Shown here piece after piece: positions 4,875 to 47,981 of a stretch of DNA of 64,000 nt (within the stretch, counting starts at the first letter, position 1; every line of letters begins with the position of its first letter). The stretch is from contig NC_054741.1 of assembly GCF_018143015.1 (NCBI RefSeq), forward strand, positions 72,164,687 through 72,228,686. The letters run 5' to 3'. Both the position numbers and the translations under genes were made by a program. The DNA comes from Lytechinus variegatus. Lineage: Eukaryota. Under the pieces are notes generated by a model. That model had not been told where the DNA came from. It ran no database searches and saw only the letters and a program-made list of their open reading frames with translations.

Positions 4875-4906
<32 letters not shown>

Positions 4907-4915: not shown

Positions 4916-5008
4916 GTTGATGAAGTTTTTTATAATAACAATGAAATTTGAGTGCCCCGAAAAACATATTTGATTATCTAATATTTCCCTTGCAACTTAC
5001 ATTTACAG

Positions 5009-15925: not shown

Positions 15926-16087
15926 TTAGACAGCTACAGCAAATCCCAGACGGTCGTTTGCACGGTCAAACTTGGTGTAGTATTTGCGAAGGAAGGGATC
16001 ACCCAGGATCCAGAGGGGTCCAGCTGGGGGAGGAACATCCAGGCCGATGAACCCAGATACACACAGCTCAACAGTGCCTTGATTCAC
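15926..16087 (-). CDS. ctsd: Cathepsin D-like aspartic protease, exon 9 (last): [53 protein letters not shown]
   Basis: Matches ORF 15926-16165 (-). Acceptor ccccag| is at 16088-16090 and stop TAA at 15926-15928. The peptide matches the conserved C-terminus of cathepsin D ([31 protein letters not shown]). Confidence 0.9.
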
Positions 16088-16841
16088 CTGGGGTAGAATA
16101 GAAAAGGTGATTGATTCATCAACTTTAGGGGTCTTGTCACACAGATCCAGGGTCCCGTACCACAAAGGTTAGCAATTAATCGTACACTTGATTTTCATAT
16201 ATTAATTGTACAGTATAGTCAATGCAATCGATCATAAAAAAATGTTCCACAATGACTGCTAAGCTTTGTGATATAAGCCCTAGGTCACTGTCTGAAACCG
16301 TTTCAAATAACTTACTAGTACATGGCAATTGCATTGGAACTGTTTTTGGTTGCCATTTTGATTACCAAGACAGTGCAATGTTGGTGTGGACATTCCATTT
16401 GGAACGGTAAACACGGCAATCAATTTCAATTTCAGAGATCAATTTCAACAGTTTTTAGTGCAGTGCTGTACCAAAATGGATCCTGATTTGTGCTTGGTGT
16501 GCAAGAGTCTTAAAACTTAAAGGCCCAAATTCACAAAATAACTTTAATGCCAAGGGGGGAAAAAGAAGAACATAGAAAACACAATTTTCATACCAAATAA
16601 TTTGAATGAAGAAAAATGCAGGGAATTTCATGTTAGCACAATATCAAAGCTAATTCCTATGAACAAAACCAAGCATCAGAAATAAATCTTCTGAAAATCT
16701 GCTTATCTACATTCTGCAGTACAGAGTTTACATTTTCAAAGATTTCAACTATTATATGTGGTTTATCATATATTTTATACAAGCCAACAATGAAGAATAT
16801 TAAAGTGAGGGCTGAGGACGTTAGAATCTATAGACACATAC

Positions 16842-16940
16842 CTTGAGGACATAGTCTTCTCCGTTCAGAGTGTATGTCTTGCCAGCAAGGACAATATTCA
16901 CAACAGGAAGAGTAGGTATCAAGTTACAGTTTATCATATA
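16842..16940 (-). CDS. ctsd: Cathepsin D-like exon 8 (YMINCNLIPTLPVVNIVLAGKTYTLNGEDYVLK)
   Basis: 99 nt at phase 0, between acceptor ttttcacag| and donor |gtatgt. Homologous to human CTSD [33 protein letters not shown]. Confidence 0.85.
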
Positions 16941-17709
16941 CTGTGAAAAATACAAAACAAATATACAAAACAATTATTAATGCTTAATGTTCTTCAACCA
17001 CACTTCACTTTTTTCAAACCACTTTTACGCTAATCATAGTTTCGGTCAGACCTGATAATTAGCTAGTCTCAGTTTCAAGCTCATAGCCGGTGACTAGGAT
17101 ACAATGATTTTTTTTCTAAATCCAGTTGAATACCAAAGCAATCGAGACCTATGCTATTGAAAGTGATCATGCAAATATGACTCAGCATGGATAGGATAAT
17201 GTATCAAGTACAAAATAAATGAGGTATTGTTGATCACGAGTACTGACTGAATATTCATGGGCGAACCACATAGTTGGCAAACATCACTTTCAACTAATGT
17301 AGGGTATACTTGTGGAGTTTACAGCACAGACCTTATGGTTAAAAATTCTGGACAGTTTGATACATACATGTAAGGCACATCCACATTATAAATGGGTATA
17401 ATGTAAGAGGAAATATGAGAGAATAAACATTAAAACTCGAAAGTTTAGCTGGAATTCTTTTCTTTAAAGAAACAATGAGTCACAGGGAGCTACTGTGAAT
17501 CAGTGTAACTCTCTAGAATTTTAATCAGGATGTCAGGGATCAGAACCCAGATATCCTTAGGCAAGACATTAATCTAACATTTGCCACTATCAATCCAGAA
17601 GAAGTAAATCAGTTCTTGGTGGGAGGCAAGCCTCGGAAACTTGTGCACCTAATCAGAGTAGCCGTGCTAGAGCTTGGGTAATAACATGCAGCGCTTGCAA
17701 ACATTGTAT

Positions 17710-18300
17710 TAGAGGGATGGTCCGGGCTGAAAGTATGTATAGCTTAATAAATAGAGTAGAATTCACTGAGCAAAATGCCGAAAATTTCATTAAAATTGGA
17801 TAACAAATAACAAAGTTATTGAATTTTACAGTTTAGCAATATTTTGTGAAAACAGTCGTCATGAATATTTATTAGGTGGGCTGATGATATCACATCTCCA
17901 CTTGTTCTTTTGTATTTTATTCTATGAAATTAGGTTTATTCAAATTTTGTCCCCAAAGAATGACAAAAATTGGATTGACAACTGACTTAGTGCATTAGAT
18001 ATTTATTGCTGCAACTTATTTCATTATAAGGGAGACATACTATTCACACAAGTATGAAATAATGACAAAAAGTACGATTTTATGTAATAACATAAGAAAA
18101 TGGAAAGTGGAGTTGTGACATCATCAGCCCACCTAATGAATATTAATGACAACTGTTTTCACAAAATATTGCTAAACTTTAAACTTCAATACCTTTATTA
18201 TTTGTTATCTGATTTTGATGAAATTTTCAGAATTTTGCTCAGTGAATTCTACTCTATGTATTAAGATATAAATATTTTCAGCCCGGACCATCCCTTTAAA
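17710..18300. mobile_element. Palindromic MITE in a cathepsin D intron (arms of about 225 bp)
   Basis: 17710-17935 (..gggatggtccgggctgaaagtatgtatagcttaataaatagagtagaattcactgagcaaaatg..) is the reverse complement of 18070-18300 (..cattttgctcagtgaattctactctat..gcccggaccatccc..). Confidence 0.8.
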
Positions 18301-18435
18301 TGCTTGATTGATGTTACATAGTATCATCATCATCATCGTTATAATCTTAGGTGTTACTGTGCATGAAAACCCTTCTCCAATTACATGCAACCTATCCATT
18401 TTTCTATTATTGGATTCATGTCAGGGATACCTCAC

Positions 18436-18577
18436 CTCGCCAGATGTAAATGGGGCAGCACCAATCTGTTCCTGAAGTTTGGCAATCTCTGCAGAGGGAC
18501 CAGCAATGAGGGACGTACCAGTGTCAGCAATGGCTGCGCAATTGGTGCAATAGGTTCCATTTCCGCCAACATTAAGA
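18436..18577 (-). CDS. ctsd: Cathepsin D-like exon 7 (SLNVGGNGTYCTNCAAIADTGTSLIAGPSAEIAKLQEQIGAAPFTSGE), second catalytic DTG
   Basis: Carries the DTGTS active-site motif, between acceptor ttaaacag| and donor |gtgagg. Confidence 0.9.
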
Positions 18578-19411
18578 CTGTTTAATAAACAAAGATCAGA
18601 TAGGTTGCAAAATATTTTAAAGACCTTTTTTATGAAAAAATGCTCTTAATAAATATATTCTATTGTCTATATATAAAAAATACATGAGACTCAATTCAAA
18701 TTAATTTCAATTCAATCGAATTCATATTATCAAACCATTGTAAAATCAATAGTATGTACACACATGTATAACAATCATTGCAAATATAGTTTAAATGATT
18801 AGGGTGCCCCTAAAAGCAGAAGCTTGACCACAAACAGATCTCTTAGTACATCAAATAACAATTTGTTGATTGGGTGCTTTCTAAAGTTATCACCACTAGA
18901 GATGAAGAGCATTGTAAGTAATATCAGTCACCAGCAGAGACATAAAATACTCACATTATCATCACACACATGTTATCATCATACACATGTTTATCAGACA
19001 TATATTATATTGTGTGACGAATTAAACAAGGCAATCAATAACATGCCACGGTATTAACATTGCATGAATTTCCTGTAAACCCAATAAACATTCAATAAAT
19101 CATACATTTTGCAATAAGATGCTTGTTGACAGGAAAAGAAATCTACACAGAGGATCTGATTTTGCAAGGGAAAGTTGTCCCAAAATTTGTGATAATTTGA
19201 TTACCAAATTGCCAATCAGAAATTTACATATATCATGTCGTCTTAGTGATCACTTTTCAAACAGCCATAACTCTCTCATTGCTTGCCACATTTATTTCAA
19301 ACCTTTACCATTCTGGGTTTTTTATGGTAAACATTTTTCTCCTCTAATGCCATTTAGTGACCAAGGTTCGATTTCCCTTGAAGAGTGAATATTATTTTTT
19401 GATCATCGTAC

Positions 19412-19534
19412 CTGTCCATCTTGATCTGCCAGTAACCTTTGCGTGTGACATTTACATAACTGAAGTCTCCAGTATAGTGATCAGGATCTGCTCCTCCAAA
19501 GACTATCTCACCGCCAACCTTAGCTGACGCATCT
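19412..19534 (-). CDS. ctsd: Cathepsin D-like exon 6 ([40 protein letters not shown])
   Basis: Matches the ORF 19354-19731 (-) frame. The NVTRK.YWQ motif, carrying the conserved N-glycosylation site of cathepsin D, is present. It lies between acceptor gtcgtcag| and donor |gtacga. Confidence 0.9.
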
Positions 19535-19851
19535 CTGACGACAGAGGAATAGAAGAGAGTTAGAGAGAGAAAGACACAAACAGGGGAGACGAAGACAATC
19601 CTTTGTTTTGAGCTGACTTTCGATAACCACACATGCTTGAAAGTTGATGAATCAGTCCTTGCTATCATTCTTATGATGCGATCAGAACCAGATTTCAACT
19701 GAACATTAATCTTATACAGGATGCAAATCACAACCCAAATGATTGGATCGCAAATTAATGGTCAAGCAAGATCATTATTCCGATGAAAAGCAGCAATATC
19801 TTCGCTTTGGTTTGTAAAATAAAATGCAATTTCAAATTAAGCTTATACATA

Positions 19852-20052
19852 CTTTGCAAGATAGACTGCAAATACAGCATCCTGAACCAGGCCCTGCTTT
19901 ACAATGTTGTCAAACACAGGAAGTTTACTGATCCTGGTAATGGTTGGGTAACCCAGTCCTAGAATTCCATCAAACTTGGCCGCTATAAAGGTTAAACCTG
20001 GTTCAGCAGTTGCCTCTCCAAAACTCTGGCTCTTTGCCTTCAGACCACCCAG
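19852..20052 (-). CDS. ctsd: Cathepsin D-like exon 5 ([66 protein letters not shown])
   Basis: Matches ORF 19843-20085 (-). Homologous to human CTSD [50 protein letters not shown]. Coordinates are good to within 1 bp. Confidence 0.9.
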
Positions 20053-21334
20053 CTGTAAGATGTAACACAAAGCATCAACATACATGATGCAGTTGTAAGT
20101 ATATTATAAACATTAGGTACAGTTTTGCTCAATGTTGGTAAACCCTACCTCAAAATACACTATAGACAACAACACTACAATGTTCTGTGAGCCCAGAGAA
20201 ACAAACTGTGTTGAATGTAATATTTTATCACCCGACTTCACAATGGAATATCTAAAACACAGCAGAATGTGAACATTTTAAATAAATTTTCTGGTGGAAT
20301 TCACTGACTTTTGAGCAACACTGCATATCGTATTTTTTGGAAAAGTCATCTCCATTCATTTTAATGCTAAATACATTAAAGTTTGGATGATTAGAAAAAA
20401 AAGAAGCATAAGTTCAATATATAAGCATTCTAAAGTTACCCTGGCCAGGTTTTACAAGTAGGATCATGCAGAGACCATTGTTCTTAAAGAAAAACAAAAC
20501 CAAATACCACATTATATCATTTATAACATGATACAGGATAATTAAAGTAAATCCATCCACTTATACCCCAATGCAATTTCCTGATATAGAGAACCACCTC
20601 TTCAAATTGGGTTTCTTCAGGTTCAAAGTCTTAGGATGGAGGTCACCATGTTCGCGGGGTTAATTCAAAATTGTGACATCAGCGACAAACTAAATCTCTA
20701 AGCAGATATATAAATGTTTGCCTATTATAGATACTAATTTACAAATAATAAATCAAATACACACATAAAGCTCATAAATATATTATTCAGAATTCGTTTG
20801 ATGAAAAAATATTTTTAAAATTCAATTTTACACCCATACCTACAATTTCCAAATTGGCAAGTTATAGCTAATTAGCAAGTTTGAAAAAAGTAGACAATGG
20901 TGAAAAATTACTGATCATATCGTGTTTTGAAACTATAGTACAAAAAATATTTGGAACAATATTTTTATGTGTTTTATTTGTATATATGATTAATTATTGG
21001 TAAATAGAATCAATAACAGTAAATGTATAAGGGATGTAGCTCGTTGCTGACATCATAATTCCTGGAAATAAACTTGGTCTGTAGTTTTCTGATACTCAAT
21101 TATGCTCAAAGACCCTATCAAAGAAAAATTCAAACATTGCATGTCCTTTTTCAATTTCCTCAACTGTCATCCTCCCCTTTAACTTGTCCGCCTTCATTTC
21201 GCAATCTAGGCCTACTCATCTTCTTCTTCCTTTGTTAGCTCCACTTTCTTTTCCTCCCCTTCTTTTGCTTGACATCCTCTTCCACCCCCTTCTATCCCTC
21301 ATCATCAAGTTCATTACCATCAAATATAACTCAC

Positions 21335-21453
21335 CTGTATTGTATCCTCACTGACAAATCCAGAGCAAGCACCCGATCCATACTGTAGAGACCATTTTGT
21401 TCCATTAGCAACATAAGTTGATGATTTGGAGCTGTCATACTTGTGATGAAAGC
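21335..21453 (-). CDS. ctsd: Cathepsin D-like exon 4 ([40 protein letters not shown])
   Basis: Between acceptor acttacag| and donor |gtgagt. It carries the conserved NGT glycosylation site and the YGSGS-like flap motif. Homologous to human [37 protein letters not shown]. Confidence 0.88.
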
Positions 21454-21529
21454 CTGTAAGTTAGGAAAGAGTAAATCATATTGTTTTTTCTTTTAAAACC
21501 TGTATGTGTGCATGAATGCGCACATCAGT

Positions 21530-21720
21530 GGCAATACGCAAGGGGGGGGGGTTACAGGTGTTCACCCCCCTTGTTATTTTTTTTACTACCCAACCCTCCC
21601 CCTAAAATAATATTGATATATTTTTCTGCTTGCTTGTCAATTTTTTTGGGGTACAAAATGACTTGAAAATATGGGTGAGGACCCTTTTTTTTTTTTTGGG
21701 GGGGGGGGGGTGTCAACATT
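21530..21720. repeat. Poly-G/poly-C-containing short element in a cathepsin D intron
   Basis: The sequence ggggggggg..cacccccc...ccctccccc...ttttttttttttggggggggggggg resembles other G-run blocks at 45725-46030, 47555, 48505-49210 and 33290-33350. Confidence 0.5.
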
Positions 21721-21991
21721 TCATTCAGTTTAAAAAATCCTGTGTATGCACATATCTATACAACATGTGTGTATACAGTACAAGTCATAGAACTACGTGT
21801 CTAAGTACTGGATAATTGAGTGCTAAATGACTGCATACCAGTACTGATTTTTTTTAAAGAAACTTTTCATCTTAAAAACTCAGAAAAAAAAATGAATGAG
21901 AAAAATCTGACATCTTGCTAGAAAAAAAATTATTAATCAGAATCTGGATTGAAATTGAAGGAATATCATCACTGACAATGCTTCAACCCTA

Positions 21992-22180
<189 letters not shown>

Positions 22181-23110
22181 CTACAAAATGAAAAAATAAA
22201 ATCAAAATAAATAGAAGATAGTTAGCCATCGCACCATCTCATGCAGATTGGTGGAAAGAAAAGTTAAAAAACATCTATAAACAGACAGAATGCAGATGTG
22301 CCTAAACATCCATACAATGTCACCACTCCTTGGGGGACAAGAGCCCTCCTAATCTCTACGTCAGAGATGCTGGAACAGACAGGTTTTGAGAACTATTACC
22401 AAAAACTTATGAAATCGAACACAAAAATATGTTAAAGCTAAATTACAGTAGATGCAGTAAAACATTGATTTTGTGAGAAAGTCTGTAAAACCAAGGTTAA
22501 GTATTACTATATCATCGTCGATCTAGATCTGGTACAGTTACATAAACTGCACTTTGTGAAATCATAAAATCTAAGCTGAAAAACAATCACACTGAAGATC
22601 GCCAACACAGATAGGCACACGTGGGACAGTGTATATTATATTGCTGGAATAAAGACCTGACGGAAGTGCCCGAATCCGCGCTTATTTTGCTAATTTATCA
22701 GCAATTCCACCATTTCTTCCAGAATCCTTCAGCACATATTTTTTTATTCATATAAACAGACACTTGGGTGGTCATTAGTTGGATTCTGTAAAAAGTCATT
22801 TTGAGATCGTTACCACAACTGGAAGTTATCTTTAAATGCAAGTTGACATTTACACATGTATATACTTACAAAATAAGACAAGACCATACTCATCAGGAGC
22901 ATAGTAAAAATCTGAATCTTCCATCAAATTTCAATGCACAAAACTGTCATACAGTATTATTGGAATGTACATGTGACAAGTAATTTTACTGTTTTGATAG
23001 AAAATAAAAAGTTTGCTGTTTCTTGCCTCTTCTTTAGTAAAAAAAATATAAAAGAAAAAACTTTGAATGTCTCTTTCTAGAAAAATATGAGGTATTGTTC
23101 CTGCGCTTAC

Positions 23111-23264
23111 ATCAAGATAGTCACTCATGTTTACTGGCCATGGTGTGCCAAGTTTGTTGGTGTTCATCATGTCGTACTTGTTGGAAAGTTGAGCCAAATC
23201 TTTAAAGGGTAGTCCTGTGTTGGCCATTTGATGACGTACAGTTTCCATCTTCTTCAGTGGAACC
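23111..23264 (-). CDS. ctsd: Cathepsin D-like exon 2, propeptide (VPLKKMETVRHQMANTGLPFKDLAQLSNKYDMMNTNKLGTPWPVNMSDYLD)
   Basis: Matches ORF 22931-23248 (-). It lies between acceptor tttctcag| and donor |gtaagc, and joins exon 1 in frame (AG+G). Confidence 0.85.
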
Positions 23265-23589
23265 CTGAGAAATAAATAAAGATTACAATTTGTATTGATG
23301 TTTACCAGTCATAAAAATCATGATAAATATAGGCCAATGCAAACATTAAAACAAACATTACGCAACGCACGTGTCTGTAACGTTGGCGAAGAACAATAGG
23401 AAACAAGATGGCAGCGTAAACATCGGGCAAGTCTCTTCAGTCTTTTCATAATATTTTTCTAATTTTTTGATGAAGTCTTGTTTAAAAATAAAATTGATGG
23501 AGCAGAAATGTCGGAAATGAAGTTGTATCCCATGTACATGATTTAGGGCTAGATCTTTTAGAAGGAAAGTAGAAATCTTGTGTGGTATT

Positions 23590-24350
23590 CTGAGATCCAT
23601 TTTATCTCAGATAAAACAAAATATTTTATCTCTGTTAAAATCAGTGAGATAAAATACGCTTAAATTCTCTCCGAATTGGTATTCGGAGAACAATTTTATC
23701 TTCATTTTATCTCTGTAAGACACCTATTTTTAAATCAATATCCAATTAGAAACGCGCTTTTATAGCTCTCTCATATCACTCAACCAATTGAAATCCATTC
23801 CGCTAGGAGTGTGGCAAAGAAGTGAGATTGCATCAATTTATTGACTCCAAATATGCTTGCGCGTCTTTTAGAGATAGGATTTTAACAAAATTGACAATAC
23901 TCTTTTTTTTCCGAAGTCTATTTCGCATCTTTTCAAGCATCATTTCACAGACAATATTAGTCAAGAAAAGTCTTATGAAATATTTCCTGATTGTACAGGA
24001 ATAACTTTAAGGTGTTGTTCTCAGTGGATATATAATTTTTCTTCATTTTCATGTCAACATTTGGAGTTCATTCACCTAGAAATATTGACGAAATCAACGC
24101 CGCGGAGATAAAATAGCCCCAACCCTCTTTTACGTTTATTATTTCTTCAAAGTAACTTAGGCGCAAGCACATTATCTGCATAGCAATGTCCAGATACGAG
24201 TTGGGTATGTCTAAGCAGCCACTGCTCTGTTGCGTATCATCATAGATACGCAAGATAAAATTTTGATTTTATCTGAGAGATAAAATGTCATCTCAGAATA
24301 CCAATTTCATTTTAAGAGATAAAATAAAATATTTTAAAGATAAAATGACC
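23590..24350. mobile_element. Inverted-repeat-bounded insertion (gagataaaat motifs) in cathepsin D intron 1
   Basis: 23590-23720 (tttatctcagataaaac...tgagataaaatacgc...ttttatcttcattttatctctg) and 24250-24350 (gattttatctgagagataaaatgtcatctcagaatacc...gagataaaataaaat...gataaaatgacc) carry the same motif in opposite orientations. Confidence 0.5.
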
Positions 24351-24552
24351 TGTCCTAAGAATACTGCCCCTGCTTTTTTGGCAGTACACGCACATAAATA
24401 GGAAGGTACACCTGGCTTCATTGAAATTAAGCCTACGTCAGTAAATGATTTTTACTCTCAAGAAGCCGCCTGGCTAGTCTGGCTTCTTAATTTAGTTACT
24501 TCCATCTAATGTTAAAAGTTTAAGGATGAGACTTAAGTAGCTTGTTAGGGTT

Positions 24553-24720
24553 AAAGGCATTATCGTGATATTGGGAAACACCGTTCACTTTATACAGCAG
24601 CGCTTTATTCAGTCACACGCACGGTTCCCCACTTCCACCTCCATTCACTTTGTATACAAGTGCGCGTACACAAATCTACGAGTGGTTCCCAAAACCACTT
24701 GTTCACTTCACTGCTACCAC
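24553..24720. mobile_element. About 165-bp MITE/SINE-like repeat, copy 1
   Basis: Near-identical to 24918-25080. Its termini are imperfect inverted repeats (ggcaatatcgtgatattgggaa at the start, ttcccaaaaccacgatttggcc at the end). Confidence 0.7.
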
Positions 24721-24917
24721 CCTGCCTGTGGGGAATCTACAGGTAGGACTATGGTATGCCAATGTTGTACAGAGCACACACTTTAAAAAATCATTAAAAT
24801 ATCACTTTAGTGACCAAAATTACTAATTTCCATACAGTTGCAATTTATTTTTCATTAGTAATTTGGGAATAATTTTTGTATTCACTAGAGCGCTCAAAAA
24901 CTTGAATTTGGGGCATA

Positions 24918-25080
24918 TTTTGGCAATATCGTGATATTGGGAACCACCGTTCACTTCATACAGCAGCGCTTTATTCAGTCACACACACGGTTCCCTATTT
25001 CCACCTCCATTCACTTTGTACACAAGTGCGTGTACACAAATCTACGAGAGGTTCCCAAAACCACGATTTGGCCCATATTT
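24918..25080. mobile_element. About 165-bp MITE/SINE-like repeat, copy 2; a solo terminal fragment lies at 25355-25385
   Basis: About 90 percent identical to 24553-24720. The motif cccaaaaccacgatttggcc recurs at 25360. Confidence 0.7.
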
Positions 25081-25739
25081 TTTGGTACGCCCTCTATTGG
25101 TGGAAAGTAATATAGCAAGAAAATTTTCATTTTTTTATCTCTATTTTTAATTAAGAAAAATATAATTTAAAGAATCAAATTTAAATAAGAGTCAAGTTGT
25201 ATGAATAACAGGTGTAATGGAGACTGTCAGTGTAAAAAGAATCAAGCATTTGCCCCAAAGAAAAAGAGAAAATAAGCCAAACATTGCCACCCTTATTTTG
25301 CCACACATGAAAATATAAGTGAAAACAAGGTTATATCATAACCTTGTTCATTGAATGAGTGCCCAAAACCACGATTTGGCCTGGTTAAACTTACTCAAAC
25401 TGGTTCCAGTGCCATGTCAATGGAAAATAAAAAGAATTAGGCCTAACTTGTTTTGAAAGAAAAATGTTTGAAACTCTTTAGTTTAGACGTTAGTCTTAAT
25501 GAAAGAAATATATTTCTTTTCCTGTCTAACTTCTTGCCTAACCCTAACTTCTAAGATAATTTCGGCTCAATACATTTTTTTTGACAGGACTGCTTGGATT
25601 TATTTGGATGACTGTACTAATTTAGACATTTTGCCTTTGGCTTACGATTATCTGTGGTGACTGTGGATCGACATTACGTCATTAGCAGTACAAAGGTATA
25701 TAGATTATAGGCCTATGCCATTATTTTAAAGTCACTCAC

Positions 25740-25804
25740 CTAATAAGCTGCGCGTTTGCTGCAACTGCCAGCAGCAGCAGTGTTGTTGCGAAAAACGTCT
25801 TCAT
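25740..25804 (-). CDS. ctsd: Cathepsin D-like exon 1: start codon and signal peptide (MKTFFATTLLLLAVAANAQLI)
   Basis: ATG lies on the minus strand at 25804-25802. The hydrophobic signal peptide ends in AxA, and donor |gtgagt follows at 25739. The 65 nt leave phase 2, and joining to exon 2 gives ..QLIRVPLKK. Confidence 0.8.
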
Positions 25805-25946
25805 TCTCCCTGATCCCTCGTCCTTGCTGTAAGTGTAACTTGTTTTGGATGTGAAATTTCAGATCAAAACCCCTCTAGAATACAGAACTGCCTTCACATT
25901 CCTTTTTCAGGGGGAAGAGTCCGGTTGGCGACTTGACTTTTCTCGG

Positions 25947-25954
25947 ATTTAAAT
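25947..25954 (-). promoter_or_regulatory. TATA-like box (ATTTAAAT) about 143 bp upstream of the cathepsin D-like ATG
   Basis: The palindromic atttaaat motif is the only TATA-like element in the 300 bp upstream of exon 1. Confidence 0.35.
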
Positions 25955-26017
25955 GCAAATAAGAAGCAGTTACATGGGAGATCGGAGAGAAGGTACAGGT
26001 CGGGTCGAGTCACGGGA

Positions 26018-26134
26018 CATCATGTGATTCATCAGTGCTTTGTATGCATTGTACGCGATCTCTATTGATTATTTCTCTCAACAGAAATCGCGGAAGACAT
26101 TTAAATCACATGACCGCGTGAACTGTCACGTGAT
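26018..26134 (-). promoter_or_regulatory. Cluster of three E-box/CLEAR-like motifs (tcatgtga 26020-26027; tcacatga 26106-26113; gtcacgtgat 26125-26134)
   Basis: GTCACGTGAT matches the CLEAR consensus GTCACGTGA(C/T) bound by MiT/TFE factors (TFEB). TCATGTGA matches the M-box. All three lie 215-330 bp upstream of the ATG of a lysosomal protease gene. Confidence 0.45.
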
Positions 26135-28599
26135 TCTTTTGTTGCAGATTGAGATTGGTTTGGTATAAATCAGAGGTGGGTTGAATTGAATTGAATAAGT
26201 TTATTGTCCATAAAAGAAATTCTTCTTTCACTGGTTTATACACATGTAGAAACAACGTTTATACACCGAACAAACAAAAAATGATGAAAACATGAATTCC
26301 AACTCAGCCATGCAGGTAACTATGATACACTAAAAAAATTGCAATACACAAGTATTTAAAATTTAAAGTCAAGGTTAAAGTCGGGTTTAGGAATAAATTC
26401 GTATTCTAGAATAATCATGTTTAGTTATACAAGTACTGCAGTTGTCGACAAGAAGTAATGGATCAAGCTGATGCAAGTGCAATTGCAATAGAGAGTAAAT
26501 GAAGCTCAAGAGAGGTGAGTCCCGATTATAGGAAAATCTCTAAGTGATATTAGTGAAAAGTCAAGGTTAGGCCTATGGGCCTATCTACCATGATTAATGA
26601 CGATCAATCAAAATAGCAGGGCATTAATTATTATGTACGGGCGAGACACAGACCTTCGGACTTGAGCTTTAAAGTGATGAATAGCATTGGGGACAAATGA
26701 TTGTATCAAACGAGCATGGAGAATTTTCACCAACAAGCGGAATAACTTTGTTTTAAAAGGTGAAATAATTAGTGGTTTAGTTCAGTGGGTAGGAAGTGTC
26801 TCGATTTGCTAAACCCGATGCCAGCCTGCTTGTGTCGAGCAACGATTTTATTAATATCGACATGATCAATGTATGGTTCCAAGATAGTTTTTCCTTATGA
26901 TAAGTACCCCTCACCAGAAGAAATCTTGTTAGGCCAAGGAGATATTAGGCCCTCTGAATGCCCTGAGGTAAAGCCCCATGGAACTTTGCAGCTAATACAA
27001 CTATAATTTGTGTTAGCTTATATCCAATTCGCACTGAGTATTCAAAATTTGTGTCAAGTTTTGGATCGTGAAAAAAACTTGGACATAAAAAAATCAGAAA
27101 TAACATTTACATTTAGCTAAAAATGTATTTTAAAAAGTATAAAAAAACAGAGTAAAAACAAGAAAACTCTTTATTAAATTGTATTTTCGGCTTTCGAACA
27201 AATGATCAAGAAGTTGTGTGTGTGTGATTTCGTTCAACTCTCCTTTTTCCTCTATTTAATTAGTTTTCAAAACAGAAAAGAATGAATGATTACACTGTAT
27301 TTTGATTAAACGTCATTATGGTTATATTCATACAAATGTCCAAATGTAATGTCCTTTCTTGTTTGGGGGAAGAACTGCACATATACATCCATCATGTATA
27401 TGACATCTCCCCTGCCGTAATATGAATTTACATAAACAATAACCAATATGTGTTGGTGAATAGGCATTCGACCAAAATATATTGGAACGATAAAATAATG
27501 ATAGAGCAAAATTTTAGACGGGAAAATTGTCGGAATGGGGAAAATGCATGCAGCTATCCAATGTCATATGGTCAATTCAACCTGTTCGCATTGACATCTT
27601 AATTGTTTAGCCATGAACGGCAACTCACACATTCGCTTCTTGATAATTGAATTCAGGACTACACGTAAAATTTTCGTCCAATAGGAAATGACCGGACGTT
27701 ATTTCATTTTCTGTGCAGTTTAAAAGGGCGTCACGATGAATCTTTCTCTGTCATGGCCGTATATATTTGACATAAAAGCGTTTATCATTCAGGTTTTCCA
27801 GTTTGGTGATAAGCCGAGTACTTGAACCAAGGCTGGCCTTCACGTCGACTAATTATCAAAATGCTGGTACGAAGTGATCGATTTAACATCGCTCTCATCT
27901 GACGTTTGATTGATTATCAGTCATTTCATTCGATTGTTTTCATGTTTAACATGTTTTTCAGTGTCGTATCCATCGTGTGTTTGGTGTTTTTCGCGGGAAA
28001 CGTTCATTTCACTGAAACATTGTCTATAAATGAAGAACCAAGAGGTGAGAAGACGTCTATGTATCTTTACTTTTTATTTATCTAATCATAGTTGTTCTTG
28101 ATTAAGGTAATTTGGAATCGTGCATCAGAAGAATAAAATCAAAACACATTCAACAGCAGCTTATCTCATATCAGATGCAAGTCCAAACTTTAAATCCAAT
28201 ATGGCCATCATCCAATTACTAAGATAAAAAACTGACATATCGTGTATTATGTCATATTACTTCATACTATGTTTTAAACATATGTATCATATTATATTAC
28301 ATGGAAATCAACTTTATGAAACATAATTTTCTTAGGGGCTATATGTTCATCACTCCTTGGCTCGTTTTTGTCTGTTTAATGAAATAAATAATCCTGTTAA
28401 AAGGGATTAAACGGTACTAAAAACGTTTTAAATCAATATAAACAAAAACTATTTCCTCGCACTTCGAGTTTTTATAATTTTATGTAGTGACATATGCTTC
28501 GATCTTTTTCATGACTACTTAAAATGATTGCCCTTGAATATAGAACATTTCCAGTCCGTGCTGTCATTCGCATTAGTGGATTGGTGACTGTGTCTGCTT

Positions 28600-30684: not shown

Positions 30685-32189
30685 AGAATAAAAAACTACA
30701 TGGGTTCATGTGTTTGATTTTTTGCTGTTGAGCTTTGAACTTTACCCATTTGAAAGGTCTCGAGGAATAGCAATGAAAATAATTTTGCAGTTTTAGACCC
30801 CACGAGGTCGCAACGTAGAGGTTAAAACTGTATTACTCAGTCCAAATCTATCTAAATTTCACAAAATTTTACACTAGAGTTCAGGATTATATACTAAGAT
30901 AAAGAATCCACTCGTATTGCCATTTGTTTGCTCTTTCAAGAGTAGCAGTACCTTCAAATTGGAAAATGAGGTGTGCCAGACCATAAACACGTCTGAAAAA
31001 TTTGAAAACAAATTTAAGAAGTGCAATAAACACTGCGCCTTGTCCAAACCCATGTCATTTTCACCAAAGTTTGCTTGGTTATATAGAAAGGTATACCAAT
31101 GATGTTTGAATATTAAAAATTAGGGGTTTGTGTACTCGTTTTCAAACTATCAGCAAATTTCATGGAGCAAATGTACTTTGAAAACACACACACACACGCA
31201 AAACGCGTCAAAAGGCTTATCTACACAAAGAAAATTTCTATAGGCCTACCAATATCCCAGCGAATAAAAATCGAGGTCATAGCATCTCATATCCCAACAC
31301 TGCAGAGTGAAGTATTCTGAAGAGGTAGATGCGTTTAAAAAGTTGGTACATAGATTATTTACCGCTTATGGCTTCGTAAAATAACGCATCAAGACAATTT
31401 GCTAACCTGCCGCGCATACATTCGTAATTCCGAAGCTTCGTAATTCCGAAGCTTCGGTTATTCCGAAGGTTCGTATTTCCGAAGGTTCGTAAATCCGAAG
31501 GTTCGTAATTCCGAAGGTTCGTCAATCCGAAAACGAAATAAGGTTCGTAATTCCGAAGGTTCGTTAATCCGAAAACGAAATAAGGTTCGTTAATCCGAAA
31601 ACGAAATAAGGTTCGTAATTCCGAAGGTTCGTTAATCCGAAAACGAAATAAGGTTCGTTAATCCGAAAATTAAATAAGGTTCGTATTTCCGAAAATGAAA
31701 ATTATTCATTTTGGTAACAAAAATGATGTTGTCATTACAAGATTACACGATATTATGCAATGATAGTAATAACGATCGATGATACATGTGTGTGTTGTGG
31801 CCAAAAGCATGTATTTCATTAAGAATATAGATCAAGCATAGGCTAATTTCGATTTTATCTGAGCAATTGCTGCCTAAGCAAAATGGTTTAAAGATGCAGG
31901 GGGTCAAGTGTGTTGGTCGCGTGCGAGTAACCTCTAGATAATAGGATTTGTATTGGAGGGGATGTCATTTTTAATAACAGCTTCTGCTGGTAATAAAATA
32001 AAAAATAATACTAATAATGATCCTTGTGAGATGTTGAAAGCGCGAATTGCAAGCTCAAACTATAGACATTTCATGTAACAAGACGTGAAGTGAGCATTCG
32101 GAGCATTTTTTGTAATCGTGAGAAAGATGTGTATCTTTCTAAAGATGCGAGGGCAAGCTGTAATATATTTATATACTGACCTGGGGCCC

Positions 32190-34040: not shown

Positions 34041-36959
34041 CGAAAATTCGTTCGGCCGCCCTTGCCTTCCCATCCTCATAATAATTGAACGGCAACAGTG
34101 TCCCCCGCCCCACTCCCCTTGCCTCTGCTTTCCCGCTTTTCATTTTTCGTATTAACGAACCTTATTTTGTTTTCGGATTAACGAACCTTATTTCGTTTTC
34201 GGATTAACGAACCTTCGGAAAAACGAGCCTTATTTCGTTTTCGGATCAACGAACCTTTTTTCGCTTTCGGATTAACGAACCTTCGGAAAAACGAACCTTA
34301 TTTCGTTTTCGGATCAACGAACCTTATTTCGCTTTCGGATTAACGAACCTTCGGAAAAACGAACCTTATTTCGTTTTCGGATCAACGAACCTTCGGAACA
34401 ACGAACCTTATTTCGTTTTCGGATAAACGAACCTTCGGAACAACGAACCTTATTTCGTTTTCGGATTATCGAACCTTCGGAATAACGAACCGTCGGAATT
34501 ACGCCACAAATGTTCGGATTAACGAACCCTTTTTCGTTTTCGGATTAACGAACATCGAGGTATAGGCAATTTACGTGTTTCGGAATTACGAACCTTCGGA
34601 ATAAAGAACCTTCGGAATTACGAAGCTTCGGAATTACGAAGTGTAGAACAACTAAAGACCTTCTTGAGAAAGGAAATGATTTACGGTTATAAAGTGACCC
34701 CTGAGTTCTTACTTATTCGTTAAAGACGCTTCCGTCAGACTATACGACCATCTTACGATTTCTGTTGTCGCAAGATTGTCGTATTTGCCAGGAGTGGGGC
34801 AGCCGGACTAGACCCAATAATTCTGATTGTACAAAAGCAATACAGCCCTAAAAATGTATTGTGTGTAATCCGGCTGGATCTGCAACTCATGACACTCTGA
34901 ATTCATTCGTAAGAAGATTTTAGGATTTTTTGGGGTACATTTTGTCGAGTTGTAAAAAAAGACGCTGCCATATCCTGTCAAATATCCTCTTACTGTTGAA
35001 TTGTTGATTTTTTCAAAATGGATGTAGTGCCAAGGAGACTGCGAGTCCCTTGTGAATGCCTTACAACGTTAAGAGTCGCTCGTAAAAGCGCCGTAAGAAT
35101 TTCCGTTCTAAAGGCGATCGTTAAAACGTCGTCAGAGCGTTTCACGAACAGCTTAACGTGTTCTTACAATCATCGTATGAAATCGAAGCGTTTAGAATTG
35201 TCTCTCGACCTAATCTAACGTGGTTTTCACGATTTTCTTTCAATGTTCGTGCGACCGCCTTACGAAGAGACGATGTGGCACGACATTAAAAAAAGTCTTG
35301 GACAAAGCCATCGACTCGACCAAGCTGCGAACTTACGAATCGTCTACGAACGCTTATTTCGTACGACCATCTTGTGAAGATGAAATGGCCAAAAAAAAAA
35401 AATATCGTTCTTATTGCAGCTTTAAACAACTTCGTGCCAATGACCATGACAGCATTAAGTAATATCCTTGAACTTCGTTTTGACATTAAACACCCCAAAA
35501 CTATCCACCGTATGTACATCTTCTACAAATCACACTTATTATCTTTTAAGTTACCAGTTATAATTCTGTTCCAAATACAAATGTTAAATCCATTAGTACT
35601 TATTTTACAGTAAACTTAATTTTTGTAATCAAGTTTCATTATATATATATAATTGTATATGAATCACACTTTAATATTTACTGTCTGTGTCATAAGTCCA
35701 TGAACGAAAAAAATTATTAATATAGCCTTGGTAAGGAGAAAGTGAAAGTTACGTGAAACAAAATTGTAATTTTATCCTGCTCGCAAGAAGACGAATGAAT
35801 TTCTATATAGCATGGGTTAAGATTTAGTAACGTAAACAATTCAAATTTAAATTGTCAGACAGAATGAAAGAGCATATCATAAAAGGAATGTTTTTTGTGG
35901 ATAAAATTCAACACTTATTGGATAAATATACACCCCCCCCCCACACACACACATATATATATTCCAAAAGGAGCTAAATCCACTTTTGGTATTTTTCTGT
36001 AAATGGAGGTTTTTTAATTCACAACTTTCCCTTAACCACTGCTGTTTTATTCTTAGATTGATTAAATCATAATTTCAAAAATCTAGCAAAGATGAATTTT
36101 TAAAGAATTTGTGAAATTTCATTTTTCATGAATTCAACTCCTTTTGGAACAAAACCCTAGTAAAATGTTATTTTTTGCCAATTTAGACATGTTTGATATT
36201 GGAAATTGAACGCAAAACACATAAATATGGCTGGCAGAGGACATTTCACATCTTTTCTGATGTTTATACATTGATCATAACAAAAAGAAAAAAAATATTT
36301 TGTCATCTTTTCTATAGACGGTGACTTTTCGATATCTAATTCCAAAAAGAGCTAAATCCAAAAATATCCATAAAAACTGTGATATTCTGTTATTTTCAGC
36401 AAGATTTGCACTAATGGTGTGAACTTGTATCCACAACATGTACCTAAAAATTGAATGCATACCTTTATTTAAAATAGGAACAATAACCAATTTCAAATAA
36501 TCGCAAAGTGGATTAAGCTACTTTTGGAACAATACTGAAATTTGCAATCAATTTTTACCAACCTTACCATCTTTTTTTCAAACGCGATATGTTGCATTTG
36601 ATTCCCACGTCTAAGATACAATTATTCTTATTAGAATATCCCGGGGGGGGGCACTTACATTGACGAGTGGAGGATGTCTTTTTCAAGAAAGGACACGTTA
36701 CGTAACGTAATAAAGGTGTCAAAAACACCGAAATAATGGAAAAAGGGTGTCTACTTTTGCTAGGAAAGCTACGTGTTTAGGGTCGAATTTGAGATGGTGT
36801 AAAAAAATAAGACGAAAATATTTTATAAAGGATGTACTTTTTGCCCCAAGAATCAACCGTAAGTGTTTAGGGTACGATTTGCGCGAGATGTTGGAGGTGA
36901 GGCTGTACTAAACCCAATGGTGTAAATAATTATTCAACCTTCATGAAAACTTAAGATAT

Positions 36960-42589: not shown

Positions 42590-42778
42590 TGAAGTCTATA
42601 CGGCTGGTTGGTGGATTGACGCCCTGGGAGGGCCGAGTAGAAATACTTCATGGTGGTGAATGGGGAACAGTATGTGATGATTTATGGGATCTTGCCGATG
42701 CACATATTGTCTGTTTGAGCATGGGTTACGCATATTCTGTGGCCGCTTTAAGTGGAGCTCCGTTTGGTGAAGGCACAG
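42590..42778 (+). CDS. SRCR-LRR gene: SRCR domain A, N-terminal half exon (SIRLVGGLTPWEGRVEILHGGEWGTVCDDLWDLADAHIVCLSMGYAYSVAALSGAPFGEGTG)
   Basis: Matches the ORF 42460-42798 frame after acceptor tgacag| at 42587-42589. It carries the canonical SRCR start (RLVGG...GRVE..H.G.WGTVCDD.W....A.VVC..LG). Donor |gtaaga follows at 42779, leaving phase 1. Confidence 0.85.
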
Positions 42779-42789
42779 GTAAGATGAAA

Positions 42790-43470
42790 GGATTCTAGGA
42801 CATCTACCCCCTGGACATCTACCCCCCGGACATCCACCCCCTTAGGACAAGTACCCCCTAGGACAAGTACCCTCTAGGACATCTACCCCCCGGACATCTA
42901 CCCCCGGACATCCACCCCATTAGGACAAGTACCCCCTAGGACAAGTACCCTCTAGGACATCTACCCCCCGGACATCCACCCCCCGGACATCTACCCCCTG
43001 ACATTTTTTGTCAAATTGCTCGTTCGTTATGATCACTCACAGACGAGCAAAAATATATTTTATCAATTCAAAATCAATTTAAAGATGAGGGGGTAGATGT
43101 CCGGTGGGTGGATGTCCGGAGGGTGGGTGTCCGGGGGGTGGATGTCCGGGGGTAGATGTCCTGGGGGTGGATGTCCGGGGGGTAGATGTCCTGGGGGTGG
43201 ATGTCCTGGGGTGGATGTCCGGGGGGTAGATTTCCGGGGGTGGATATCCGGGGGGGGGGGGGGTAGATGTCCGGGGGTGGATGTCCGGAGGGTGGATGTC
43301 CGGGGGGTGGGTGGATGTCCGGGGGGTAGATTTCCGGGGGGTGGATGTCCGGGGGTAGATGTCCTAGAGGGTACTTTTCCTAGGGGGTACTTGTCCTAAG
43401 GGGGTGGATGTCCGGGGGGTGGAAGTCCGGGGGGTGGATGTCCGGGGGGTAGATGTCCAGGGGGTACATG
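42790..43470. mobile_element. Small foldback-type element in the intron splitting SRCR domain A: inverted arrays of a ggacatc(t/c)acccc(c) tandem unit around a 75-bp spacer
   Basis: 42790-43010 carries direct tandem repeats (ggacatctaccccctggacatctaccccccggacatccaccccc, interleaved with taggacaagtacccc). 43085-43470 is the reverse-complement array (gggggtagatgtccggtgggtggatgtccgg...ggggtacttgtcctaa). The spacer itself contains ttgctcgttcg...cagacgagcaa. Confidence 0.8.
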
Positions 43471-43512
43471 TCCGGATACTAATTAAAGGAATGCACGTAG
43501 AGGGTAGTTATA

Positions 43513-44501
43513 CAGTGCGTATCAAAAAGAAGTTTACACTTTGAAAAAATCCTGTAAAATTATACATTTGTAATATCCTGAAGATTTTTCCACATTTTAA
43601 CATTGGTACAGATCCATTTAAGCAAATGACGATATAACTATCGAAAAATATTTCCGCTTGAGTGAGCACCACTTACTTTTGAAAAGTTAGTGAAAACGGA
43701 TTTGCGCAGAACTTTGAAATAGCTATGCGAATAAAAGTAAACCTTTATCATGAAGAACACGTAGAATTTAGCAAGTAAAATTGATTTGGAGATATCTTTG
43801 ACATCTTTTAAGTTGTTTCCTTGCCCAATACACATCAAAGAGTGCATTGCGCCCTTCCCCCACTCCTCCACACACCAAAGCCATCAAGGCGATATTTGAT
43901 TTACACTGAGCTGTGATTTACATAAAATGAATTAGGCTTGATTTTCATTTTGTTAATCATTGTCAAGATTGGGAAAAGTGTGGAGAAACAAGTATTAAAT
44001 GAAAAATTAAATGTCAACCCCTTTTTAAATAATAAAAACTTAGTAAAAAAGTGCAGGAGATGTCTGATGTAAATTTTTGTTCAGATTCAGTTATGTCCTC
44101 TGATCCAGCTGGCACAAAAAGGGTAAAAGTTGTGCTTACTAAGTGTTGAAATTTCAATTCGGGTGGCAAATTTGTTTAAAAATGCTTGAATGTATCTGTT
44201 TTATCTTAATTGACTTAAAGTGCAAGGGTAATGTAGGAAAAATGTATCGCAGGGTAAGTTTGATTTTGCCCTTTGCCCTTGACACTGCGTGAAAACGAGC
44301 ATTTCTGCGCAAACAGATTTCTGCGAGCTTTACAAAAATGGACAGTGCTCACTCAATTGTAACATTCTGTCAAAACTTTTACTTTCATTGGATAGATGAG
44401 ACCCGTACCCAAGATTATATGTGAAAAAATTACCCGCATGTTGTATATTTTTTAATTCCCAGAGCTTTTTCAAAGTGTAAACTTTTTTTTGATACGCACT
44501 G
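43513..44501 (+). mobile_element. Non-autonomous Tc1/mariner-like element, copy 2 (about 989 bp), nested in the SRCR-A intron, with TA target-site duplication
   Basis: Same CAGTGCGTATCAAAAAGAAGTTTACAC terminal inverted repeats and internal sequence as 29701-30684, flanked by ta...ta. Confidence 0.85.
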
Positions 44502-44914
44502 TATATAGGGTGCCATTTCGGAATATTATCCTTTTACTAAATTGTTTATGAAAGGTTAATCTTTTTTTAAGATACTCATCGCCTTTTTATGCTGTATCAA
44601 CATAATTCTAAAGATCTTCGTTTATGATATCTACATTCATTGTCGAACAAAATGATATTTAACATTTGTTTCTAGAAATAGTGATATGAACACTTCTTTG
44701 ATAAATCGTGTGTAAAATAAGACTTATTTTAAAACCACGACAGGTCATAGTCCTCCAATTATGCTAATGGATTTTGACCTTGATGCATGGCTTCTCAATC
44801 TTAATTCCTTTTTAAGGTACAATTTAAGATCAAGATCCTGTAGTGATTCTCAGTGAATGAAAGCGCTGCATGAACATCCATCACTCGTGATTGCCCTTGT
44901 GTCTCTGACCTTGA

Positions 44915-45112
<198 letters not shown>

Positions 45113-45724
45113 TAAATTTCTGGATGAAAAAAAATCGCCATTACCCCATTTTGTGCGAAGTTTAATGTAAATGCTGATTTTTGCTCGTAACTATGAAGCG
45201 GTCTTGTATAGTCCAAGTCAGTTCAACACAGGATCCGTCCCGGTAAAGTACGTACTTGGGGTTTGCATGAAAGAGACACAAACGAAATCAGAAACAGTCC
45301 ACAATCTTAGATTTTTAAAGAACCTTTTGGTACAGCATTTGAAACGTTTTGGTTCCAAACAGTATTCTATAACCGTTCGTTATACAAGGAATCATCTACG
45401 GTTCTTTATACAAGCTATGGTTTTTTGTTGCTGTGAATTCATAATCTAACAATGGATTGTTTCGTATTATAGGTTCATGTTTTGAAGAACCATAAACGAA
45501 ATGTTCTAATCAGCACATTGCTTTCTAAGAATGCAGGACTGTTGTAAAGACGACAGTAACACCAGGACGTTCTGACCAGACAAGACTTAGGTCTAAGGTA
45601 TTGTGTGTCACGGCTATCAGCTTTGTCCAATGAGAAGGCTCGGGCACCACTGGGAGATGAACCTTTCATGAAATAATTTATTTCGTATAAGTCTTATAAG
45701 TGTAAAAACTTTTATAAGTAACGG

Positions 45725-46035
45725 AAGAACGCAGGGGGGGGGGGGAATCTCTCCCAAAAGGTAGGGGGGACAAGAGGCTGGAAAATTCGACAAGCAAAAA
45801 AAAAAAAAAAAAAAAGGTATCACCCCAAATTTAAGGTCACTTCGACGAAAATAAATTTGACAGGCAGAAAAAAAGGGTCATCATCCCCAAAATAAGGTCA
45901 CCTCGTCCTAAAATACATGTTATATATAAAATTTGAATGATGTATTTCTTATAGTAGGGGGACATTTGATATTGTGTCCCCCCTACTATATTGAGTGGGG
46001 GGGGGAGGGGGCACGTCCCTCCTGGGATTTCCGTC
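45725..46035. repeat. G-run/C-run-rich repeat block with an internal palindrome (tagtagggggacat...tgtcccccctacta)
   Basis: gggggggggggg, a20 tract, repeated aaggtcac(t/c)tcg units and ggggggggagggggc. It is intronic. Confidence 0.5.
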
Positions 46036-46368
46036 CATGGAAGAACGTGATTATCAAACGAGAATATGGGGAGGATTAGACGATGTAAGAAAGGAATTCA
46101 AGAAGAAACGGTTTTTGGTAAGATGTGCTCAATAAGCACTGACAGTTTTGACGAAATGTGCTAAGAGGTCTAATTAACAAGCCCTAAAAGTGTGAAAGAG
46201 TTTAAAGTACAGTTAATAATTATCAAAGAAATCACTTTACATAGATAGGCATTTTCAGGTTAAGCTTATGAAACATGGGAAGAAACATCATCGCACAACG
46301 CGAAGTTATGAAGCTCCAAAGTTAGAGTGACCCTTTCCCCTTTCTCTTGTGACATGTACGCACTGTAG

Positions 46369-46701
46369 TTCGTCTCGTCGATGGGAGATATCCTTGGGAG
46401 GGCAAGGTGGAAGTATTCAAAGATGGTTCCTGGGGAACCGTGTGCGACAATAACTGGGACATGGATGATGCCAATGTGGTCTGCAGAAGTCTAGGACTAG
46501 GTGAGGCTGTTGAGGTATCCACCTTCAAGGATTGCTGTTTCCAGGACTACCAGGATGTTGACGAGGGATTGAATGACATTTTCTTGGACGAAGTAGAGTG
46601 TCTTGGAAACGAATCTATCCTGCTTGATTGTCCTCATTCTGGTTTTGGAGTTTACAACTGCAACCACACACAGGATGCAACAGTAAAATGCGAAACTGGG
46701 A
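46369..46701 (+). CDS. SRCR-LRR gene: SRCR domain B, single exon (VRLVDGRYPWEGKVEVFKDGSWGTVCDNNWDMDDANVVCRSLGLGEA...NCNHTQDATVKCETG), 8 cysteines
   Basis: Matches ORF 46407-46724. The 333-nt symmetric phase-1 exon lies between acceptor cactgtag| and donor |gtaagc. It has the full SRCR consensus, including HC.G.ES.L..C...G.G...C.H..DA.V.C. Confidence 0.9.
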
Positions 46702-47024
46702 GTAAGCATATTTTTTTAAGTTAAGTTAATGACTAGTTATCAATGCAACATCGACCTTTCTTATTTGGAATATACATGTATACCCTTTATACTTCTTTGT
46801 CCTGTATGGCTCAACCCATGTTCTTAATGTCAAACTTAATTTAGTCGTTGCCAAAATGTGTTATTCATCGGTAATTACTCTTACCATAAGCCTGTCCTTT
46901 ATATGGTGTTCCACACGGCAGTGTCTTGGCACACTCTTGCTAATCTTTTTAAAATATAAATGACTTTAACTGGTTGGTTATATAGGATCCTGCGTTTAAT
47001 CCGTAATTATCAATGATGTTACAG

Positions 47025-47333
47025 TTCGCCTAGTTGGTGGAAGCAACAACCTTGAGGGTCGGGTTGAAGTGTTCTACGATGGTTCCTGGGGTACGGTTTG
47101 CAGTCACCACTTCGATATCATCGATGCTCACGTAGTCTGCAAGAGTCTCGGTCACACCTTCGCACTGAGTGCGTCATCGTACGCAGACTTCGGGCAGGGA
47201 AAAGGCGATATCGTCTTGGATGGTCTCCACTGCACCGGTGGCGAATCGAATATTTACGAATGCGAAAGTGATGATACGAATTTCTTCAAATGCTTTCATC
47301 AAATGGACGCGGGAGTCACTTGTTCACCAGAAG
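47025..47333 (+). CDS. SRCR-LRR gene: SRCR domain C, single exon (IRLVGGSNNLEGRVEVFYDGSWGTVCSHHFDIIDAHVVCKSLGH...DAGVTCSPE), 6 cysteines
   Basis: Matches ORF 47069-47365. The 309-nt symmetric phase-1 exon lies between acceptor gttacag| and donor |gtaaaa. Confidence 0.9.
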
Positions 47334-47981
47334 GTAAAAATACTGAATTGGTGTTTGAAAGCTAATTACTGAACCTGACATGTACTTTTTCAAAAATATT
47401 GTCCATCCTTAGATATGTGTTATTTGGCTCTATTGAACATGATGAATATTAATATCAAGATTCTCAATATCAATCGTTTTCACCATTATTAAAAGTCAAT
47501 CGCATAGAATACATTACTCTGCTAGCTAATTATGTAAAGAGGTGGGTTTTTTTTTTGGGGGGGGAGATGGCACATACTCCCGCAACATTTGTTTAAACGG
47601 GGAATCCACACATTATAAGCCAGAACTAAATCTTGACCCGAATCCGTATCATTGCCATCATCCTAATCCTCACTCCATTATCAACCAAAATCCCATCACA
47701 TCAATATTTCAAACTTACAAACCTTACCATAGTCGTCAGAGAAATTAGAATAAGAGCAATTGTTACAAGAGTAGGCCTATATGTCATGTTACAGAAGGGG
47801 CTACTCATAGATTTAGAGTTGTTTCCAGTAAAAAAAAATGCAAAAATTGGAAGAGTAAGTTTGAATGTTAAAGATAATAATAACAAACCGACATCCAACA
47901 TAGAGAGTGGCCCTGGTCAAATTGGGAAGAGCAGAAGAGAATATAATTTTAGATTATTATAGCTTTATATTGCCAACACAG

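Follow-up and report, generated by a model that had tools for sequence, protein, structure and literature searches.

The 64,000-nucleotide stretch of the sea urchin Lytechinus variegatus genome analysed here (contig NC_054741.1, positions 72,164,687 to 72,228,686; the whole stretch is called the window below) contains a cathepsin D-like gene on its minus strand, and the DNA upstream of the start codon carries a cluster of three E-boxes, one with the core of the CLEAR element (from coordinated lysosomal expression and regulation) and two of the M-box type. Sites with the same consensus, RTCAYRTGAY, precede the orthologous gene in other echinoids, and the three-motif cluster is very probably a working control element. 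On balance, we favour the view that positions 25805-26151 hold a selectively maintained, CLEAR-like promoter module of the MiT/TFE type that belongs to cathepsin D and is possibly shared with USF.

Nine aspartic protease exons were recovered from minus-strand open stretches between 15.9 and 25.8 kb, and the hand-spliced product agreed to a rounded 100% with XP_041456565.1 (395 aa), recorded as "lysosomal aspartic protease-like [Lytechinus variegatus]", one residue at an exon junction having been misread in the splicing. The start codon occupies 25804..25802 on the minus strand, and the first upstream base is 25805. An earlier reading made from the sequence only had called the gene cathepsin D-like, and this identity is borne out: the protein has a Pfam Asp domain (E=4e-115), a signal peptide, both catalytic Asp-Thr-Gly motifs (DTGS and DTGT, one within AIADTGTSLIAG) and, by alignment, 54-57% identity to vertebrate cathepsin D. 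It fits the pattern of peptidase A1, an Asp domain with two catalytic motifs preceded by a signal peptide and a propeptide. The first N-glycosylation site (NGT) is invariant in the cathepsin D alignment, the window protein included; the second, NVT, is kept in L. variegatus and lost in L. pictus and in a third echinoid known from a Logan contig (L001). The Strongylocentrotus purpuratus protein is 82% identical over the aligned part. No further L. variegatus paralogue appeared among the top protein-search matches. These data agree with the presence of one cathepsin D orthologue, whose product would be lysosomal.

All four motifs that the sequence-only reading had described upstream of this gene, a TATA-like box and three E-boxes, were recovered (25947-25954, 26020-26027, 26106-26113 and 26125-26134; Table 1). 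The distal E-box reads GTCACGTGAT on the plus strand and ATCACGTGAC on the gene strand; the fit to the 10-bp CLEAR consensus GTCACGTGAC that had been proposed for it holds at 9 of 10 positions. Its core, TCACGTGA, has the form of a CLEAR core, a palindromic E-box with T at -4 and A at +4, while the middle and proximal sites each contain the M-box TCATGTGA in one or the other orientation (TCACATGA being the reverse form). Together, the CLEAR core and the two M-box cores span 216-329 bp upstream of the ATG. The string TCAYGTGATT on the plus strand is common to all three sites. The distal and middle E-boxes start 20 bp apart, form an 11-nt inverted repeat (I5) with one mismatch, and enclose a class-C site, CACGCG. 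Calling these E-boxes MiT/TFE-type was well founded, in that the 8-mers are exactly the CLEAR and M-box sequences that MITF binds with dissociation constants of 0.9 nM (TCACGTGA) and 2.6 nM (TCATGTGA), both of which have been used in reporter assays (PMC6355916).

Table 1. Features of the cathepsin D-like locus in the window and E-box sites upstream of orthologous genes. Sites are numbered from the A of the ATG; 5' untranslated region (UTR) introns could hide promoters at any of the compared loci.
Feature	Window coordinates	Strand	Position relative to ATG	Description
Cathepsin D-like gene, full coding span	15926..25804	(-)		9 coding exons, 395 aa, annotated "lysosomal aspartic protease-like"
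Exon 1, coding part	25740..25804	(-)		encodes MKTFFATTLLLLAVAANAQLIR, signal peptide; GT donor at 25739-25738
Promoter and 5' UTR block alignable between L. variegatus and L. pictus	25805..26151	(-)		ends 18 bp upstream of distal E-box
Distal E-box, CLEAR core TCACGTGA	26125..26134	(-)	starts -329	8-mer 26126-26133
Middle E-box, M-box type	26105..26114	(-)	starts -309	TCACATGA at 26106-26113; gene strand GTCATGTGAT
Proximal E-box, M-box type	26019..26028	(-)	starts -223	TCATGTGA at 26020-26027; gene strand ATCACATGAT
ATTTAAAT, TATA-like box of the sequence-only reading	25947..25954	(-)	-150..-143	
ATTTAAAT, second copy	26099..26106	(-)		overlaps/abuts middle E-box; gene strand GTCATGTGATTTAAAT; inverted repeat I4
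L. variegatus (window)			-329, -309, -223	TCACGTGA, TCATGTGA, TCACATGA
L. pictus (L009)			-314, -294, -210	all three sites unchanged; protein 98.7% identical
Diadema antillarum (L002, L003)			-341, -243, -229	GTCACGTGAC, TCACATGA, TCATGTGA; protein 68% identical
Third echinoid (L001, Logan contig)			-255, -237, -180	TCATGTGA, TCATGTGA, TCACATGA; protein 77% identical
Saccoglossus (L005)			-113, -95	TCACATGA, CACGTGA; pair spacing 18 bp
Xenopus laevis ctsd (L007)			-121	CTCACGTGAC
Xenopus tandem ctsd paralogue (L007)			-113, -82	GGTCACGTGAC, TCACGTGG
Callorhinchus, chimaera (L008)			-82	half-site only
Anneissia, crinoid (L004)			-657	lone TCACATGA
Branchiostoma, amphioxus (L006)				none in 5 kb upstream
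Diabrotica, beetle (L010)				none in 5 kb upstream

E-box clustering in the window is beyond chance. The CLEAR core occurs once in the 64 kb, against 0.5 copies expected, and the MiT/TFE class as a whole (TCACGTGA, TCACATGA and TCATGTGA) six times, with three of the six inside 114 bp. When the window was shuffled 1000 times with dinucleotide composition preserved, the biggest 120-bp cluster comprised two sites (26 shuffles), and three sites were reached in 0/1000; shuffles of the 500-bp promoter gave at least three sites in 0/5000. A repeat or transposon origin of the promoter was discarded because the region is single-copy within the window. The CpG observed/expected ratio, 0.87-1.09 at the promoter against a window mean of 0.64, was also set aside as a promoter marker, the bump being too weak to decide.

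We then compared the orthologous promoters of other echinoids. In L. pictus, Diadema antillarum and L001, too, three TCAYRTGA sites precede the ATG, at distances of 173-341 bp. Pairwise protein identities place L001 outside Lytechinus and Strongylocentrotus and nearer to both than Diadema is, and because of this placement the Lytechinus, Diadema and L001 promoters are taken as independent lineages. Since blastn of the Diadema and L001 loci against the window returned exon matches only, these promoters are otherwise unalignable, and the picture is that of a phylogenetic footprint, with the motif retained in three echinoid lineages while the flanking promoter diverged past alignment. Six 8-mers, counted with reverse complements collapsed, are common to the three 500-bp promoters, against 0.25 expected and with 0/1000 shuffles reaching this number, and five of the six consist of the E-box and its flanks. 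Promoter shuffles with at least three sites were likewise absent for Diadema and for L001 (0/5000 each). The Diadema counterpart of the distal site, GTCACGTGAC, matches the CLEAR consensus at 10/10 positions. Each promoter contains a close pair, with start-to-start distances of 20 bp in Lytechinus, 18 bp in L001 and 14 bp in Diadema, and a third site 57-98 bp off. Conservation of the cluster amid unalignable DNA is strong evidence for a function tied to the cathepsin D gene, and the putative E-box element is solidly conserved across Echinoidea.

The L. pictus comparison is of a different kind. Over the stretch L009 9669-10087, identity to window 26151-25721 is 89%, and neither the E-boxes nor the two copies of ATTTAAAT have changed; at about 90% background identity and so short an evolutionary distance, this conservation says little. 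About 600 bp directly upstream of the cluster are unalignable (window 26152-26740 versus L009 9012-9668), with homology returning further upstream. This pattern suggests an insertion or replacement event that stopped 18 bp before the distal E-box, leaving the cluster untouched.

In the mechanism that we propose, the three RTCAYRTGAY E-boxes would be cis-elements on which purifying selection acts in sea urchins. They would be bound by a dimer of Mitf, the orthologue of TFEB/TFE3/MITF and the one MiT/TFE factor of echinoids, which would boost expression of the lysosomal protease gene at times of demand for lysosomal or autophagic capacity, and transcription would start just downstream of the cluster. 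A USF-type factor of the bHLH-Zip class (basic helix-loop-helix with a leucine zipper) would probably compete at the CACGTG site, as USF2 does in the mouse. In melanoma cells and melanocytes, MITF knock-down lowers CTSD expression (PMC6355916), and the review PMC9363479 cites the description of a Mitf orthologue in Paracentrotus. Of the nine sites counted over the three independent echinoid lineages, six are CATGTG-type with a TCA flank, and CACGTG is missing from L001; a MiT/TFE factor would therefore be the best single candidate.

Several observations weigh against this proposal. At mouse Ctsd, USF2 occupies the CLEAR motif in competition with TFEB (PMC11436898), and the sequence by itself therefore cannot assign the factor; for the same reason, a USF-type factor counts as a rival candidate and would also be likely to share the CACGTG site. 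A role of Mitf in lysosomes or autophagy, though assumed, is unreported in sea urchins and molluscs (review PMC9363479). Outside the echinoids, a proximal full site was not found in the orthologues of Callorhinchus, Anneissia, Branchiostoma and Diabrotica. At about -25 in L. variegatus, and kept in L. pictus, ttacag/CAAGG is a possible splice acceptor, so that the 5' UTR may hold an intron or a non-coding exon may lie further upstream. Finally, the L001 contig, which appears to be RNA-derived because its coding sequence is intronless, runs without a break from the ATG through the E-boxes into a divergent LYRM9-like gene, and the L001 E-boxes may thus be covered by at least one transcript, from one strand or the other.

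We considered whether the E-boxes are functional through another bHLH-Zip factor (USF, SREBP, Myc/Max or Mlx-type) and drive constitutive or metabolic expression outside the lysosome-biogenesis programme, which we regard as unlikely but worth serious attention. The distal site ATCACGTGAC fits USF and also the E-box form bound by SREBP, and the class-C CACGCG within the distal pair points the same way. Myc/Max, on the other hand, disfavours a T flank, and the gaps of 12 bp and 78 bp between the 8-mers differ from the spacing of a carbohydrate response element, in which two CACGTG-like boxes stand exactly 5 bp apart. The motif recovered by USF2 chromatin immunoprecipitation sequencing is GTCACGTG, and USF2 sits on the CLEAR motifs of mouse Ctsd, Lamp1 and Atp6v0d1 (PMC11436898). 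Against a factor of this kind stand the predominance of TCA-flanked CATGTG sites and the L001 promoter without CACGTG, since binding to TCATGTG is particular to MiT/TFE and separates this family from the other bHLH-Zip factors (review PMC9363479).

It is improbable, in our estimate, that the cluster is functional but not core-proximal, acting as an upstream enhancer, as a bidirectional or antisense promoter or from inside a transcribed 5' leader, with the start of transcription elsewhere. The possible acceptor near -25 in both Lytechinus species and the modest local CpG bump are compatible with such an arrangement, and so is the gene order in L001, where the cathepsin gene and a LYRM9-like gene (647-880, minus strand; 77 aa, Complex1_LYR domain; nearest named relative S. 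purpuratus LYRM9) flank the cluster head-to-head, with 530 bp between the two ATGs on one RNA-like contig. However, LYRM9 was not found by tblastn in the Lytechinus window or at the Diadema locus, where a fibrinogen-domain gene on the same strand ends 5.3 kb upstream of the cathepsin gene, and no gene was called within 10 kb upstream of the cathepsin gene in L. pictus. A promoter shared with the LYR-motif gene was rejected on these grounds. The distance from the cluster to the ATG stays within 173-341 bp in all echinoid lineages despite the differing neighbours, and in L001 the interval between E-boxes and ATG is contiguous and the coding sequence uninterrupted. With its roughly constant ATG distance, the cathepsin gene is the constant partner of the cluster.

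The remaining alternative, a chance or neutral feature such as a recent local duplication or a transposon fragment, could account for the extended flanks shared by the three Lytechinus sites and is untouched by the uninformative retention in L. pictus, but it was already disfavoured and is very hard to credit given the shuffling results, the independent recurrence of the cluster in Diadema and L001 and the single-copy state of the region.

The TATA-like box fared less well than the E-boxes. ATTTAAAT is a one-mismatch variant (TTTAAAT versus TATAAAT) of the TATA consensus TATAWAWR, whose usual place is some 25-35 bp ahead of the start of transcription, and occurs five times in the window against 9.2 expected, and is thus statistically weightless. 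Neither the Diadema nor the L001 promoter has a counterpart, and the retention of both copies in L. pictus is uninformative at the background identity given above. We therefore rejected ATTTAAAT as a conserved core promoter element for want of support. In Xenopus laevis, both paralogues have a TATA box (ATAAATA or TATATAA) about 65 bp downstream of the CLEAR box (L007 27720-27921 and 4800-5001). The 73-bp gap from the proximal E-box to ATTTAAAT in Lytechinus resembles this spacing, which may be coincidence.

Other short motifs were seen in the same interval. The first ATTTAAAT is overlapped by a perfect octamer, ATGCAAAT (gene strand ATTTGCAT; 25953-25960), which is kept in L. pictus; none was seen in the Diadema or L001 promoters. 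In three echinoid lineages, the E-boxes have motifs of a DRE-like class, ATCGCG/ATCGAT, between them. Those of Lytechinus are CGCGAT/ATCGCG at -288 and -255 (26054-26068 / 26078-26092); they account for two of the four copies in the window and form an inverted repeat of 15 nt. In L001 there are two ATCGCGAT palindromes (1186-1205), and in Diadema TCGCGAATCGAT and ATCGAT (L002 9678-9690 and 9738-9743). Since neither Lytechinus copy is intact in L. pictus, constraint on this motif is doubtful. Two more GTCACATGAT sites stand 24 bp apart at the 3' end of intron 2 of the Diadema gene, just upstream of exon 3 (L002 13946-13977); they may be a MiT/TFE pair in the intron or have arisen by local duplication.

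Beyond echinoids, proximal sites were found in the hemichordate Saccoglossus and in both Xenopus genes (Table 1), and we regard these as weaker versions of the echinoid cluster. The "deep conservation" suggested by the sequence-only reading is thus only partly borne out, with proximal sites in Saccoglossus (-113, -95) and Xenopus (-121, -113) and no proximal full site found in Callorhinchus, Anneissia, Branchiostoma and Diabrotica; the putative E-box element at the cathepsin D gene is not universal. Given the hemichordate and frog sites, this element is plausibly older than echinoids. We see about an even chance that a three-site MiT/TFE module has been kept in front of cathepsin D since Diadema separated from Lytechinus and Strongylocentrotus and that, with the Saccoglossus and Xenopus sites, CLEAR control would be ancestral to deuterostomes. 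That split dates back on the order of 200 million years.

Further features of the loci lie outside the promoter. In L001, the 3' UTR of the cathepsin D transcript (2590-3000) contains two to three degenerate tandem copies of the coding end (…ILGDPFL…DRLGF..AV*-like). Myosin motor-domain exons occupy 2359-5306 of the window on the plus strand, convergent with the cathepsin gene, an arrangement that L. pictus has kept. SRCR-domain exons form a run at 42600-48400 (plus strand), with a proline-rich low-complexity stretch at 43066-43396. Apart from the cathepsin gene, these myosin and SRCR genes are all that the window contains, and neither carries TCACGTGA. Two oppositely oriented blocks of CpG-rich 16/26/42/68-bp tandem repeats with the unit TTCGTAATTCCGAAGG lie about 2.5 kb apart, at 31421-31700 and 34144-34640; their CpG observed/expected ratio exceeds 2.5, and they match Diadema L002 25500-25658 at 75-87%. 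They may represent subterminal repeats of a DNA transposon that echinoids have conserved. No tRNA gene was found when the window was scanned for them.

How does the urchin module compare with known systems? Full-text literature searches returned no paper on CLEAR elements in sea urchins. Because CLEAR-type control is established in vertebrates, flies and nematodes, an element of this type was to be expected in a sea urchin, and the current picture of CLEAR control is unchanged by it. Like the vertebrate CLEAR elements targeted by TFEB, TFE3 and MITF, with CTSD among the target genes, the urchin sites have the 8-bp core TCACGTGA and match GTCACGTGAC at 9/10 positions (10/10 in Diadema), and they are multi-copy and probably promoter-proximal in front of an orthologous lysosomal protease gene, as at Xenopus ctsd (-121) and its paralogue (-113). 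Unlike them, palindromic CACGTG makes up just one of the three sites in each echinoid promoter (none in L001), the rest being the M-box TCATGTGA. The M-boxes of MITF targets such as tyrosinase share the exact TCATGTGA/TCACATGA 8-mers, present twice per Lytechinus promoter and in six of nine sites across the three lineages; the classical M-box genes serve pigmentation, whereas the gene behind the urchin M-boxes encodes a lysosomal hydrolase, and a CLEAR core stands alongside them. The motifs occupied by USF2, which is repressive and competes with TFEB, share the core GTCACGTG, and the mouse Ctsd promoter is a documented USF2 target (PMC11436898), although CATGTG sites, a less typical form for USF, are in the majority in echinoids.

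The closest invertebrate parallels are the targets of Drosophila Mitf, which include v-ATPase genes, and of C. elegans HLH-30, where CLEAR-like E-boxes of the same class mark lysosome and autophagy genes under a single-copy MiT/TFE factor (PMC9363479). Those cases rest on gain- and loss-of-function and on expression, and the vertebrate ones on MiT/TFE binding and membership of a genome-wide network, whereas the urchin case is known from sequence and its conservation. It is a well-supported new instance of an established element type, unsurprising and useful as a test object, and it provides an example of a promoter in which motif content and position are kept while the surrounding sequence turns over completely. 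If the module is indeed ancestral, it would be the first cis-regulatory evidence of a Mitf-lysosome axis in echinoderms. The module offers a conserved, easily mutated cis-element of about 115 bp for probing the MiT/TFE-lysosome programme in a phylum for which such evidence has been lacking (review PMC9363479).

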